Part shown: one piece after another, positions 1,242-2,804 of the stretch | Numbering within the stretch: position 1 is the first letter of the stretch | Layout of the letters: the number at the start of each line of letters is the position of its first letter | From: Escherichia phage NHEP10 | Length of the DNA: 64,000 nt | Reading direction: 5' to 3' (one strand) | Sequence record: PQ511148.1 | Made by a program: the position numbers and the translations under genes | Notes under the pieces: generated by a model | Databases searched by the model: none | Seen by the model: the letters and a program-made list of their open reading frames with translations, nothing else | What the model was told of the DNA's origin: nothing

Positions 1242-1812
1242 AAAAGTTTCGGATTTGTTCCCAATTCAGAGAACGAAGATTATTACGAGAGTACTGAATT
1301 ACTTCAATACCGGCTTGTTTTAGAATGTCTGCCCAATTTTCAGGAGATCTGTCATATAATTCTGCGTATACAACCTTTTTAATACCTGACTGCGTAATAG
1401 CTTTAGTGCAATCAGGACATGGAGAAAGCGTCGTATATAATGTAGCACCTTCAATAGAATTACCTTTACGAGCTGCAAACAAAATTGCATTCAATTCTGC
1501 ATGGATTTCATTATTAGCAGACCATGCACTATGAGCGGCCCGATGTTCTTTAGCCAAAACAAAATTATCCACCCGTCCAAATGCTGTAGTGCCTTCTTTA
1601 TGTCCAGCAATGATGACCGGGCTTGGTTTATTCTTCAACCAACCATTTTCGGATGCATGTTCACAACAGTTAACGCCACCTGCGGGTGAGCCATTATATC
1701 CAGTAGAAATAATGCGCCCATCTTTTTCAATGACGGCACCAACTTTCCATGAACAACATTTTGATTCTTGAGAAATCAGATATGCAATCTGAAGGTATGT
1801 GCTAGCTTTCAT
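1231..1812 (-). CDS. cd: dCMP deaminase
   Basis: 193 aa (T4 Cd is 193 aa); zinc-deaminase motifs CEHASE and SPCPDC; synteny. Confidence 0.9.
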   Translation of the reverse strand: MKASTYLQIAYLISQESKCCSWKVGAVIEKDGRIISTGYNGSPAGGVNCCEHASENGWLKNKPSPVIIAGHKEGTTAFGRVDNFVLAKEHRAAHSAWSANNEIHAELNAILFAARKGNSIEGATLYTTLSPCPDCTKAITQSGIKKVVYAELYDRSPENWADILKQAGIEVIQYSRNNLRSLNWEQIRNFCGE

Positions 1813-2804
1813 TATTGAACCTTATTAATATGAGTTAACAGCTCTTTAGTTTGTTCCCAACTGATGCACGCATCGGTAACGGAAACGCCATAGGACATAT
1901 TATCAGAAATTTTTTGATTTCCTTCATGTAGGAATGATTCTATCATAATTCCTTTGACCAAATCATTAGCTGCTAAATTTTTACCGATACCAATTTGATT
2001 GCTATAATGCCCATCAGCGTTTGCATGGCTACAGTCAACCATTACATAATGATTCAGACCTACTGCCCTTGCTTTGTTAGAAGCTTCTTGAATATCAGAA
2101 GAATGATAGTTCGGGCCGTTGGTCCCGCCACGCAATACGATATGCGTATTCTGATTACCTTCAGCTTCAACAATGCCTACAGTACCATCGACGTCCATAC
2201 CCATATACCGATGAGGCCAGGCGGCACTATACATCGCGTCTGTAGCTACTTTAATAGAACCATTGGTTGCGTTCTTGAAGCCTACGCACATCGGTAGACC
2301 TGAAGCAATTTCACGATGTGTCTGACTTTCAGTCGTACGGGCGCCAATAGCAACCCATGAGAAAATACCAGAAAGATACTTAATCGTGAATGGGTCTAAT
2401 ACTTCAGTTGCTAATGGAAGTCCCATACGTAGAAGTTTACGACACAATGTTCGTGCAACTATAAGACCGTGGTTCATATCAAAACTTCCGTCAAGATATG
2501 GATCATTTACAAGACCTTTCCAACCTACGGTAGTTCGAGGCTTTTCAAAATAAACGCGCATCACTAACAGAACATTAGGAAGACGAGTTTGAAGTTCAGC
2601 CAGACGTTTGCCGTATTCAACAGCAGCAATAGGGTCATGAATTGAACAAGGACCTACAACAATAAGTTTGCGTGGGTCTTCACCATTCATAATCGAATTA
2701 ACTTGTTCACGATGAGAAGCCACTTGTGATGCGTAAGCTTCCGACAAAGGAATAATCTCAGCTAGTTCTTTTGGAGAAATAAGTTTTCCGACGACAGGTA
2801 ACAT
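1812..2804 (-). CDS. 3-deoxy-7-phosphoheptulonate (DAHP) synthase, class I (AroG/AroF-like)
   Basis: 330 aa collinear with E. coli AroG: motifs VVGPCSIHD, VMRVYFEKPRTTVGWKGL, GARTTESQTHRE, VMVDCSHAN, ESFLHEGNQ; stop overlaps cd start by 1 nt. Confidence 0.85.
   Translation of the reverse strand: MLPVVGKLISPKELAEIIPLSEAYASQVASHREQVNSIMNGEDPRKLIVVGPCSIHDPIAAVEYGKRLAELQTRLPNVLLVMRVYFEKPRTTVGWKGLVNDPYLDGSFDMNHGLIVARTLCRKLLRMGLPLATEVLDPFTIKYLSGIFSWVAIGARTTESQTHREIASGLPMCVGFKNATNGSIKVATDAMYSAAWPHRYMGMDVDGTVGIVEAEGNQNTHIVLRGGTNGPNYHSSDIQEASNKARAVGLNHYVMVDCSHANADGHYSNQIGIGKNLAANDLVKGIMIESFLHEGNQKISDNMSYGVSVTDACISWEQTKELLTHINKVQ

Follow-up and report, generated by a model that had tools for sequence, protein, structure and literature searches.

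A DAHP synthase with an altered feedback site in T4-like phages and its proposed role in prephenate supply for cytosine hydroxylation

The window analysed here, 64,000 nucleotides of Escherichia phage NHEP10 (PQ511148.1), comes from an RB69-like coliphage of the genus Mosigvirus and is 99.9% identical to phage NHEP36. It encodes a DAHP synthase (DAHPS) that keeps the catalytic residues of its cellular relatives and is predicted to have lost their feedback control. Comparative evidence gives moderate confidence that this enzyme is a deregulated prephenate-supply gene for a cytosine hydroxylation that would be catalysed by a phage U32 protein, probably under anaerobic conditions. The gene, which an earlier note on this DNA had described, is not a new sighting: DAHPS is already annotated in ~212 deposited phage genomes and has its own PHROG (5045). 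New here are the recognition of a Straboviridae-only DAHPS clade with an altered feedback site, the nesting of this clade within U32-bearing phages, the adjacency of chorismate mutase and U32, and a convergent DAHPS-U32 pairing on the metagenomic phage contig L027. In the literature outside He et al. 2026 (Nat Chem Biol) and Mahler et al. 2025 (Cell Host Microbe), a full-text search found neither a link between DAHPS and U32 or prephenate nor an explanation for the phage DAHPS.

Sequence comparison confirms the predicted product as a full-length type I-alpha DAHPS of the AroF/G/H kind. PF00793 matches the open reading frame (ORF) over model positions 8-269 of 270 with 252.3 bits (cutoff 25.5; E 5e-75). 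The NCBIfam models TIGR00034 (aroFGH) and NF009395 score 428.7 and 455.9 bits against cutoffs of 173.2 and 343, and the top solved structure is E. coli AroF (6agm; E 3e-105). These profile and structure matches are far beyond chance. The ORF stays below the cutoffs of the AroG-specific NF006723 (363.9 versus 568 bits) and the AroH-specific NF009396 (386.5 versus 463 bits), and no KdsA model is found among its NCBIfam matches at E<=0.01. The metal ligands C61, H268, E302, and D326 of AroG correspond to C53, H260, E289, and D311 in the window. The PEP and erythrose-4-phosphate (E4P) residues R92, K97-P98-R99-T100, G163-A164-R165, K186, and R234 (AroG numbering) are identical in the window enzyme and in those of four other phage genera, and K-P-R-T is found in all clade members. 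All 127 aligned sequences share the same metal, PEP, and E4P residues. The earlier note had taken the product for a true class I DAHPS, not a KDO8P synthase, and this assignment is borne out by the conserved metal and PEP/E4P residues and by the lack of KdsA matches. The three motifs that it quoted are all present (FEKPRTTVGWKGL, IGARTTESQTHREIA, and VDCSHANA). With its intact active site, the enzyme would be catalytically competent and would convert PEP and erythrose-4-phosphate to DAHP.

The gene lies between pseT and cd (Table 1), as had been noted earlier, and its TAA stop (1814-1812) overlaps the cd ATG by a single base (TAATG), which implies translational coupling. In RB69, the pseT-cd slot holds only the small ORFs cd.2, cd.3, ORF227c, and cd.4, with no DAHPS. 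The order pseT...DAHPS-cd recurs in five other genera. Genes of nucleotide and folate metabolism, among them frd, td, nrdAB, and cd, surround the DAHPS gene.

Table 1. Features of the window considered in this analysis, with their positions and the basis of each assignment.
Feature	Position	Strand	Basis
cd (dCMP deaminase)	1231..1812	-	Annotated as dCMP deaminase in NHEP36
DAHP synthase CDS, 330 aa plus stop	1812..2804	-	ATG-initiated ORF; profile, structure, and residue matches
Shine-Dalgarno-like AAGGA, 4 nt upstream of the DAHPS ATG	2809..2813	-	Sequence reading
pseT (polynucleotide kinase/phosphatase), upstream border of the DAHPS slot	3901..4800	-	ORF and NHEP36 annotation
Candidate T4-type middle-promoter-like site, nearest upstream (MotA box TGCTTCA, spacer, TATACAAT)	4184..4208	-	
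182-aa P-loop thymidylate-kinase-like nucleotide kinase, position of RB69 gp45	60129..60677	-	Synteny and NHEP36 annotation
299-aa protein, position of RB69 gp46:47 (DNA arabinosyltransferase 1)	60678..61577	-	Synteny only; Table 1 of PMC13326640
Thymidylate-synthase homologue, equivalent of RB69 gp48 (flavin/O2-dependent 5-hydroxy-dCMP synthase)	61577..62293	-	PF00303; function from PMC13326640
79-aa ORF at the position of RB69ORF049c; overlaps the U32 stop with its start	62335..62574	-	
Peptidase_U32-family protein (RB69 gp50 homologue), proposed prephenate-consuming Fe-S hydroxylase	62571..63740	-	PF01136, 42.4 bits versus cutoff 22.4

Alignment indicates that the phage enzymes form an old clade confined to Straboviridae (T4-like phages). 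In an unbiased scan of 29 phage clade members and 98 cellular enzymes, only seven columns are diagnostic of the clade (AroG 150, 151, 155, 156, 180, 209, and 223). The phage residues include P150I, Q151K, D155G, S180P (window P171), and F209Y (window Y200), whereas the cellular enzymes keep P150, Q151, D155, S180, and F209 at 93-100% (n=98). In AroG, inhibitor contacts are made by Gln151 and Ser180, and Asp155 lends the site stability; the mutants S180F and F209A/S resist feedback, and P150L does so fully (PMC9529685). The clade-diagnostic changes map only to the allosteric inhibitor site and not to the active site. The N-terminal arm is also lost, with 8-12 residues before Pro19 in the phage clade, where cellular enzymes have at least 16. 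The earlier note had listed the feedback-inhibition site for comparison with AroG, and it is this site that is specifically not conserved in the window enzyme. Since the allosteric site for aromatic amino acids is dismantled, the phage DAHPS is predicted to be constitutively active and insensitive to feedback. The lost site is regulatory, not catalytic, and membership in the type I-alpha family stands. The unrelated DAHPS of Aeromonas phage HJ05 is likewise substituted at 150, 151, 180, and 209.

Among the E. coli enzymes, AroF is nearest to the phage DAHPS (51% identity, versus 47% for AroG and 43% for AroH). All three share its fold family, full-length collinearity, metal ligands, and PEP/E4P residues. 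Unlike them, the phage enzyme is 20-26 residues shorter, lacks the N-terminal arm, and replaces Pro150, Gln151, Asp155, Ser180, and Phe209. Engineered feedback-resistant AroG and AroF variants (P150L, S180F, F209A/S, Q151 variants, and N-terminal deletions) are altered at the same positions (PMC9529685). In contrast to these variants, the phage changes are natural, combined, and fixed across the clade, and their resistance is predicted from sequence. A recent capture of host aroF was considered and rejected, given 55-98% identity within the phage clade and a sharp gap to cellular enzymes at ~50-55%. Planctomycetota enzymes score as near as AroF of Enterobacterales, which also argues against a recent host capture. 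Two divergent members of the clade again occur in T4-like contexts and add no new arrangement.

The U32 gene lies in the 5-hydroxycytosine (5hoC)/arabinose modification cluster, always beside the 5hodCMP synthase gene in the lineages checked. The phage U32 protein has 13 cysteines that are invariant across eight lineages, including C195-X10-C206-X5-C212...C236 and a C-terminal CX4CX3CX2C. This spacing departs from that of the canonical UbiU motif, and the phage protein aligns poorly with UbiU/V (17-22% identity). Mapping of the Fe-S ligands by such an alignment was set aside because the proteins are too divergent for it to be trusted, and a PDB sequence search with the phage U32 gave no match. 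Second-tier U32 homologues adjoin genes for dCMP deaminase, dUTPase, thymidylate-kinase-like proteins, and DNA glycosyltransferase. A Pfam search of the 299-aa cluster protein gave no match. Published annotation calls RB69 gp50 a 'sugar or heterocycle reductase' (PMC13326640). The phage thymidylate-synthase homologue, RB69 gp48, requires O2, and together with a dNMP kinase it is enough for 5hoC formation aerobically (PMC13326640), which counts against a role of U32 in hydroxylation.

DAHPS occurs in ~212 phage records and U32 in 221 (union 242), with both present in 191, although the large number of near-identical Mosigvirus genomes inflates these counts. DAHPS thus accompanies U32 in 191 of 221 U32-positive records and is found in none of the U32-negative Straboviridae. 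The ~21 records with DAHPS only are mostly non-Straboviridae fragments. At the genus level, DAHPS is present in roughly 8 of 11 U32-positive genera versus 0 of at least 5 U32-negative ones. RB69, Tegunavirus, Mosugukvirus, and the Thanatos phages carry U32 without DAHPS, so DAHPS is an accessory gene. In Straboviridae, the two genes are ~60 kb apart and thus do not form one operon, which counts against a role in prephenate supply. Close homologues of the 5hodCMP synthase were found in 342 records, including 57 from phages of Acinetobacter, a strict aerobe. No Acinetobacter phage is found among the U32 matches, and the modification cluster of DLP3 has no U32 gene.

A second enzyme of the pathway also accompanies U32. 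A Pfam CM_2 (AroQ chorismate mutase) protein, above the gathering score, adjoins U32 in seven of eight lineages, the exception being Mosigvirus, and it keeps this place in rearranged clusters such as that of Thanatos-2. The window contains no chorismate mutase homologue and Mosigviruses lack it, which counts against prephenate supply as the role of the window enzyme. The 79-aa ORF fills the slot that chorismate mutase holds in other genera. As a divergent chorismate mutase it was rejected, with no Pfam or NCBIfam match and an hhalign probability of 0.1% against the phage chorismate mutase profile.

Contig L027 carries, in order, genes for a SIS isomerase, an AfhE-like protein, U32, and DAHPS. 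Its DAHPS is a 248-aa type I-beta core without a regulatory domain and lies beside the same U32 subfamily. The different DAHPS class and the unrelated phage mark this pairing as an independent convergence. DAHPS adjoins a second-tier U32 in only one of the seven contexts sampled; genes of the same size as the L027 DAHPS follow U32 on two other contigs, L024 and L025, and were rejected as DAHPS. In HJ05, DAHPS is paired with a CmoA-like enzyme that consumes prephenate. A faecal 'Bacteriophage sp.' contig with DAHPS, which may be bacterial in origin, showed no prephenate-related neighbours by tblastn.

From these comparisons, we infer prephenate as the goal of the phage DAHPS, the reaction that U32 catalyses, and a tie of this reaction to anaerobiosis. 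The phage enzyme would drive carbon into the shikimate pathway even when aromatic amino acids shut the host pathway. The added chorismate would be turned into prephenate by the mutase domains of host PheA and TyrA in Mosigvirus, and by the phage AroQ chorismate mutase encoded beside U32 in most sister genera. Prephenate would then be the co-substrate that gives oxygen to the phage U32 protein, a putative Fe-S enzyme. RlhA, TrhP, and UbiU/V are U32 hydroxylases of cells that depend on prephenate and need no O2. On their model, the phage U32 protein may hydroxylate cytosine at C5, in a nucleotide or in DNA, independently of O2. The 5-hydroxycytosine made anaerobically would be arabinosylated, in parallel with the product of the O2/flavin-dependent gp48-type synthase. 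RlhA, a U32 protein, makes 5-hydroxycytidine and requires prephenate and Fe-S clusters (PMC5727448). Prephenate is also the oxygen donor for UbiU/V under anoxia, while flavin enzymes serve aerobically (PMC10990095).

The earlier note had offered three roles for the gene, and supply of prephenate to the U32 protein is the one favoured by the co-occurrence, the chorismate mutase, and contig L027. The broader supply of aromatic amino acids that it also named survives with less weight, as it leaves the strict nesting within U32-bearing phages unexplained. In its general form, this account treats DAHPS as an auxiliary metabolic gene for chorismate products (aromatic amino acids for late proteins, pABA and folate for dTMP and the baseplate, or quinones) with no specific tie to U32. 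A genuine DAHPS among nucleotide and folate genes, 60 kb from U32, fits it, as does the fact that RB69 manages without the enzyme. It is nevertheless rather unlikely: the need for folate and amino acids is common to all T4-like phages while DAHPS is found only in U32-bearing lineages, the chorismate mutase beside U32 in sister genera diverts chorismate from folate, quinones, and tryptophan to prephenate, and the DAHPS of L027 is embedded in a modification cluster. Prephenate or chorismate could instead serve another consumer, whether a U32 protein acting on a sugar, on host or phage tRNA or rRNA, or on a quinone, or the host tRNA modification by CmoA or TrhP. The association of DAHPS, chorismate mutase, and U32 indicates that prephenate matters, not which substrate is hydroxylated, and the reductase label of RB69 gp50 and the CmoA-like partner in HJ05 lend this idea some support. 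The constant place of U32 beside the 5hodCMP synthase, the nucleotide-metabolism and DNA glycosyltransferase neighbours of second-tier U32 genes, and the fact that RlhA, the closest chemical precedent, yields exactly 5-hydroxycytosine make it quite unlikely.

The third role, a neofunctionalised aldolase, would join PEP to another sugar phosphate, such as arabinose-5-phosphate from the phage isomerase, and yield a KDO8P-like sugar acid for DNA or surface modification. The phage does make arabinose-5-phosphate, PF00793 spans DAHPS and KDO8P synthases, and E. coli DAHPS accepts pentose phosphates weakly. Identity as a KDO8P synthase or other aldolase was nonetheless rejected on the active-site identity with DAHPS and the model scores, and the role itself is very improbable. 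Across the clade, KPRTT and every E4P/PEP contact match AroF/G/H exactly, and the diagnostic changes lie only at the regulatory site. There is no KdsA match, and the L027 enzyme scores 237 bits on DAHPS models versus 63 bits on KDO8P synthase. An association with chorismate mutase would make no sense, and the published RB69 nucleoside is arabinosyl-5hoC, without a sugar acid. The variable pseT-cd slot and the absence of DAHPS from RB69 could also suggest a passenger gene that is decaying or has no function, carried in a hypervariable region. This is hardly credible for a gene with 111 of 330 columns unchanged among 29 clade members of 55-98% identity, every catalytic residue kept, one shared locus in at least six genera, and an intact frame in >190 genomes.

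The proposed prephenate supply resembles several known systems. E. coli has both O2-dependent and prephenate-dependent hydroxylation enzymes (UbiI/H/F versus UbiU/V, TrhO versus TrhP; also RlhA). The phage likewise encodes a flavin/O2 enzyme and a U32 protein, perhaps for one and the same step, and RlhA matches the proposed phage U32 product, 5-hydroxycytosine, in rRNA with prephenate as oxygen donor. Unlike the E. coli enzymes, the phage U32 proteins are a distinct small subfamily with a weak UbiU match (E 5e-4) and other cysteine spacing, and their substrate would be a deoxynucleotide or DNA. The phage would need prephenate in stoichiometric amounts for its whole genome (~63,000 cytosines), and it brings its own pathway-entry enzyme. 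The Bacillus bifunctional DAHPS-chorismate mutase AroA(Q) (NF009239) likewise pairs the two activities in one genome, whereas those of T4-like phages are separate genes 60 kb apart and their DAHPS is type I-alpha. The chorismate mutase domain of AroA(Q) is a regulatory sensor and not the main mutase. The 248-aa L027 enzyme resembles unregulated type I-beta DAHPS cores. Phage FolE and QueCDE supply precursors for 7-deazaguanines. In contrast to such genes, DAHPS supplies the committed, flux-controlling entry step of a central biosynthetic pathway. Seven reactions separate this step from the co-substrate, and the route leans on host AroB through AroC. Phage CmoA/CmoX carboxymethylcytosine is similar in that phage-encoded upstream metabolism feeds a base modification and CmoA also consumes prephenate, the availability of which its authors raise as an open question (PMC12783734).

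The biosynthetic route to arabinosyl-5-hydroxycytosine DNA, which relies on an O2-dependent flavoenzyme, appeared in print only in 2025-26. The U32 protein (RB69 gp50) is the conserved cluster gene without a real assignment in that pathway, and the published account, within the same literature scope, mentions neither DAHPS nor chorismate mutase. Tying the three proteins together gives a testable proposal for gp50 function and for DNA modification without oxygen in gut phages. In its strongest form, which is tentative, a feedback-blind DAHPS, with or without a monofunctional chorismate mutase, powers a U32 protein in T4-like phages of facultative anaerobes that hydroxylates every genome cytosine without O2, with prephenate as stoichiometric organic oxygen donor. 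If true, prephenate-dependent hydroxylation would be seen in a virus for the first time, with a demand of ~10^7 prephenate molecules per infected cell. It would supply the missing function of gp50, extend prephenate-as-oxygen-donor chemistry from RNA and quinones to viral DNA, and explain the arabinosyl-5-hydroxycytosine DNA of gut phages under anoxia, where the flavin/O2-dependent synthase cannot work. A virus would also be rewiring a tightly feedback-controlled central pathway through naturally feedback-resistant versions of two regulated steps. Phages of this kind are often candidates for phage therapy and act in niches without oxygen, and a predicted natural feedback-resistant DAHPS may be of use in metabolic engineering.

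Around the DAHPS gene, a scan for sigma-70 promoters and terminators gave 20 sites versus 17.1 expected, which is not above chance. The gene would be expressed with the early and middle nucleotide-metabolism genes, translationally coupled to cd. MotA-type middle-promoter-like sites number 17 in the window versus 5.8 expected.

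The ORF that the earlier note read as a DAHP synthase (DAHPS) is real, with 330 codons, an ATG start, and profile matches above cutoffs, and all of the motifs quoted from it are found in its product. It lies between pseT and cd, as had been stated, and the claimed overlap with cd is borne out, the TAA stop and the cd ATG having one base in common (TAATG). An AAGGA ribosome-binding site stands 4 nt 5' of the DAHPS start. The first 6 kb of the window share 99.9% identity with Escherichia phage NHEP36 and ~97% with dozens of Mosigvirus (RB69-like) phages. By tblastn, 212 deposited phage records contain the DAHPS gene, most often under the label phospho-2-dehydro-3-deoxyheptonate aldolase, AroF, or AroG, and it belongs to phrog_5045 in PHROGs (E 5e-182). 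The gene is already known at annotation level and is no new sighting; no published statement of its purpose was found in the searched literature.

In RB69, the pseT-cd slot holds only cd.2, cd.3, ORF227c, and cd.4, and cd.2 abuts cd without DAHPS (AY303349.1, 133742-135229). DAHPS is present in nearly all other Mosigvirus genomes, which makes RB69 a natural null. RB69, a laboratory strain propagated over a long time, may have lost DAHPS, or may equally never have had it. Elsewhere in the window, a 136-aa ORF between rnlA and nrdB (7934..8344, minus), labelled "endonuclease" in NHEP36, carries a GIY-YIG-like motif ELVYIGKTKNLKKRINYYR and is probably a seg-type homing endonuclease.

Coordinates of the DAHPS locus, the 60-64 kb cluster, and two comparison loci
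Feature	Position	Strand	Remark
DAHPS ORF, 330 codons, ATG start	1812..2804	minus	read from sequence
cd (dCMP deaminase)	1231..1812		downstream of DAHPS, ATG overlapping DAHPS TAA
Kinase-like gene			60-64 kb region, after uvsX
299-aa gene			60-64 kb region, after uvsX
Thymidylate-synthase (TS) homologue	61577..62293		60-64 kb region
79-aa ORF	62335..62574	minus	positional counterpart of RB69ORF049c
Peptidase_U32 protein (U32)	62571..63740	minus	PF01136, 42.4 bits, cutoff 22.4
L027 cluster	Logan SRR13394437_29825, 5940-10804		80-kb contig; phage with DnaE-type polymerase
HJ05 pair, CmoA-like gene and DAHPS (L019)	OQ594355.1, 2645-3379 and 6257-7417		unrelated 79-kb phage

The identification as a true DAHP synthase was right. 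Pfam DAHP_synth_1, the profile suggested for checking it, matches the product end to end (E 5e-75), and the product clears the curated NCBIfam cutoffs with 428.7 bits for the aroFGH equivalog (cutoff 173.2) and 455.9 bits for subfamily NF009395 (cutoff 343); the AroG- and AroH-specific cutoffs are not reached. Among solved structures, the best match is E. coli AroF (6agm, E 3e-105). An alignment of DAHPS with E. coli AroG, AroF, and AroH and with homologues from four further phage genera shows that all four metal ligands (C61, H268, E302, and D326; AroG numbering) and all PEP/E4P contacts (R92, K97-P98-R99-T100, G163-A164-R165, K186, and R234) are kept. These catalytic residues are unvarying across 29 members of the T4-like-phage clade and 98 cellular sequences. 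The feedback-inhibition site, also proposed for checking against AroG, did not come through intact and is altered at P150, Q151, D155, S180, and F209. Judged by these residues, the DAHPS of the window is intact, and its allosteric site is altered.

A database search returns ~24 DAHPS clusters at 55-98% identity, all of 319-343 aa and on phage-sized contigs, and beneath them a plateau of cellular enzymes from unrelated phyla at ~50-55%. Within this plateau, Planctomycetota enzymes are as close to DAHPS as Enterobacterales AroF. Given this sharp identity break and the lack of any closer relation to AroF, DAHPS forms an old phage clade and is no recent capture from the host. The same 29 phage and 98 cellular sequences were scanned without bias for columns with one fixed residue in the phage clade, another in cells, and practically no overlap between the two. 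Over the full length of the protein, the scan picks out just seven: P150->I, Q151->K, D155->G, L156->I, S180->P, F209->Y, and T223->A. Additionally, 8-12 residues precede Pro19 in the phage proteins, compared with at least 16 in every cellular enzyme.

The clade-diagnostic positions are positions of the inhibitor site. In AroG, P150L confers complete feedback resistance, and S180F and F209A/S are also feedback-resistant; bound Phe or Tyr touches Gln151/152 and Ser180/181 through its main chain, and an Asp155 salt bridge stabilises the inhibitor site (PMC9529685). Because the clade changes fall at these known positions, the phage DAHPS is predicted to be constitutively active and feedback-blind. 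This clade-specific dismantling of the allosteric site appears to be new.

The 60-64 kb part of the window corresponds to the RB69 gp45-gp50 region. RB69 DNA was shown in a 2026 paper to contain arabinosylated 5-hydroxycytosine, and gp48, the TS homologue, makes 5-hydroxy-dCMP with flavin and O2 (PMC13326640). That paper lists gp50, the U32 protein, just as a "sugar or heterocycle reductase" and nowhere mentions DAHP, chorismate, or prephenate (PMC13326640). The known prephenate-dependent hydroxylases are cellular U32 proteins. RlhA forms 5-hydroxycytidine in 23S rRNA and needs prephenate synthesis and Fe-S clusters (PMC5727448), and TrhP is the prephenate-dependent alternative to O2-dependent TrhO. 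For UbiU/V under anoxia, prephenate is the proven oxygen donor, whereas flavin enzymes perform these steps with O2 (PMC10990095). The phage U32 has 13 invariant cysteines. Its cysteine spacing is non-canonical, and its alignment with UbiU/V is poor.

In Winkler-, Marfa-, Braga-, Kagamiyama-, Teguna-, and Mosugukvirus and Shewanella phage Thanatos-2, the neighbour of U32 is an AroQ chorismate mutase (CM), which throughout exceeds the Pfam CM_2 gathering score of 27 bits (32.8-46.8 bits) and usually has overlapping stop and start codons with its neighbour. The adjacency persists despite rearranged cluster order, and CM occurs in 53 records, always at the U32 locus (tblastn). The same search finds no CM in Mosigvirus, and the window carries none elsewhere. 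Among the surveyed U32 lineages, RB69 alone thereby encodes neither of the two feedback-controlled steps to prephenate; the others encode one or both. The consistent association of DAHPS and CM with the phage U32 of the 5-hydroxycytosine pathway appears to be new.

Several further features of the U32 locus are observed. The 79-aa ORF, translationally coupled to U32 and without a family match, fills the exact slot of CM in the seven other lineages. It was rejected as a CM itself (hhalign probability 0.1%) and is either a CM replacement or a U32 accessory factor. Thanatos-2 carries a TS homologue, a 300-aa protein, a kinase-like gene, U32, and CM (324-3891), an order that differs from the enterobacterial phages but retains the U32-CM adjacency with overlapping stop and start; Thanatos is reported to bear a pentose on its cytosines (PMC12838424). 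In several genera, homing endonuclease genes, Seg-like or other, are inserted next to U32 (L002, 8352-8990; L012, 3714-4397; L014, 1864-2502), and in Proteus phage PM2 the insertion separates U32 from CM, which suggests a mobile-endonuclease hot spot at this cluster.

Phage records with DAHPS number 212 and those with U32 number 221, and a fused DAHPS-U32 query gives a union of 242 records (434 places); therefore, 191 records carry both, in counts dominated by near-identical Mosigviruses. DAHPS stands without U32 in ~21 records, for the most part fragments or contaminants that are not T4-like (<60% identity) or split assemblies, and the ~30 U32-only records include RB69, Yersinia Tegunaviruses, Pectobacterium PM2, and partial genomes. 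From this pattern, DAHPS is nested inside the U32-bearing set within T4-like phages. Close homologues of the 5hodCMP synthase are found in 342 records, including 57 phages of Acinetobacter, a strict aerobe; no Acinetobacter phages are among the 221 U32 matches, and U32 is absent from the DLP3 modification cluster.

Beyond the intactness of DAHPS and the change at its allosteric site, we infer every step of the following mechanism. DAHPS, placed in the early/middle nucleotide-metabolism block and translationally coupled to cd, would open the shikimate pathway whatever the aromatic amino-acid level. Host AroB through AroC would take the flux on to chorismate, and prephenate would come from host PheA/TyrA mutase domains in Mosigvirus and from phage CM in other genera. 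The U32 Fe-S protein would then use prephenate to hydroxylate cytosine C5 without O2, releasing phenylpyruvate. At 37.6% G+C, each genome holds ~63,000 cytosines, and a burst of 100-200 would therefore consume roughly 10^7 prephenate molecules in each cell. As a rough estimate, this would be a large share of the total Phe and Tyr flux that a cell sustains de novo, and a repressed, feedback-inhibited pathway in rich or gut conditions would fall far below it. Such a demand would explain why the phage supplies deregulated versions of the regulated steps.

Counting against a link between the two genes, DAHPS and U32 lie ~60 kb apart in T4-like phages, and DAHPS is dispensable in RB69 and missing from three U32 lineages; DAHPS could instead provide a general aromatic, folate, or quinone supply or, much less probably, be a functionless passenger gene; its nesting among U32-bearing phages counts against the first reading and its unvarying catalytic residues against the second. 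Those residues also make a neofunctionalised aldolase improbable. Counting against the U32 role, gp48 alone is enough aerobically (PMC13326640), and U32 could act on a different substrate. Together, the dismantled allosteric site and the DAHPS/CM/U32 association make a specific, testable functional proposal for both genes.

The phage U32 subfamily is small (282 proteins), and its second-tier homologues (48-58% identity) lie on metagenomic phage contigs, the largest of 466 kb, a size that suggests a megaphage. All seven second-tier contexts examined are DNA-replication, nucleotide-metabolism, or base-glycosylation clusters, with neighbours including a DnaE polymerase (PolIII-alpha), a dCMP deaminase directly upstream, dUTPase, ThyX, thymidylate-kinase-like genes, UDP-galactopyranose mutase, and T4 alpha-GT-like and other glycosyltransferases. 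Radical-SAM/SPASM proteins are also among the U32 neighbours (L024-L026, L028-L031). In several of L028-L031, a conserved ~326-338-aa protein without a Pfam match overlaps the U32 start and may be a partner subunit.

Only one of the seven contexts, L027, has an adjacent DAHPS. Its order is SIS isomerase, AfhE-like kinase/nucleotidyltransferase, U32, a 248-aa DAHPS, and NAD-epimerase, the first two being homologous to Mosigvirus arabinose-activation genes (E 4e-22 and 8e-51). The L027 DAHPS is a type I-beta core without a regulatory domain (NF006421, E 2.6e-70); the best score with KDO8PS models is 63 bits, and no relation to the window DAHPS is detectable by BLASTP. The 8-kb flanks to left and right showed no TS homologue. 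L027 is a compact sugar-5hoC-like cluster with DAHPS inside, and because its type I-beta core adjoins U32, a different unregulated DAHPS class has been recruited beside the same U32 subfamily, in independent convergence.

In Aeromonas phage HJ05, a CmoA-like gene (TIGR00740, E 7e-35, below the equivalog cutoff) lies three genes upstream of a DAHPS (38% identity) that is independently substituted at 150, 151, 180, and 209 with catalytic residues intact. CmoA is the prephenate-consuming carboxy-SAM (Cx-SAM) synthase, and HJ05 may represent a second kind of phage pairing of prephenate supply and consumption. An Acb2/Tad1-like gene lies just downstream.

Sites resembling T4-type MotA-box middle promoters (TGCTTNA, 10-14 nt, TANNNT) number 17 in the window against 5.8 expected, an approximately three-fold excess that none of 100 shuffles reaches. 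Most are on the minus strand, where all examined early/middle genes lie; examples, all minus, are 906-930, 13115-13138, 17059-17083, 20219-20244, 60714-60738, and 4184-4208, the last being the nearest to DAHPS.
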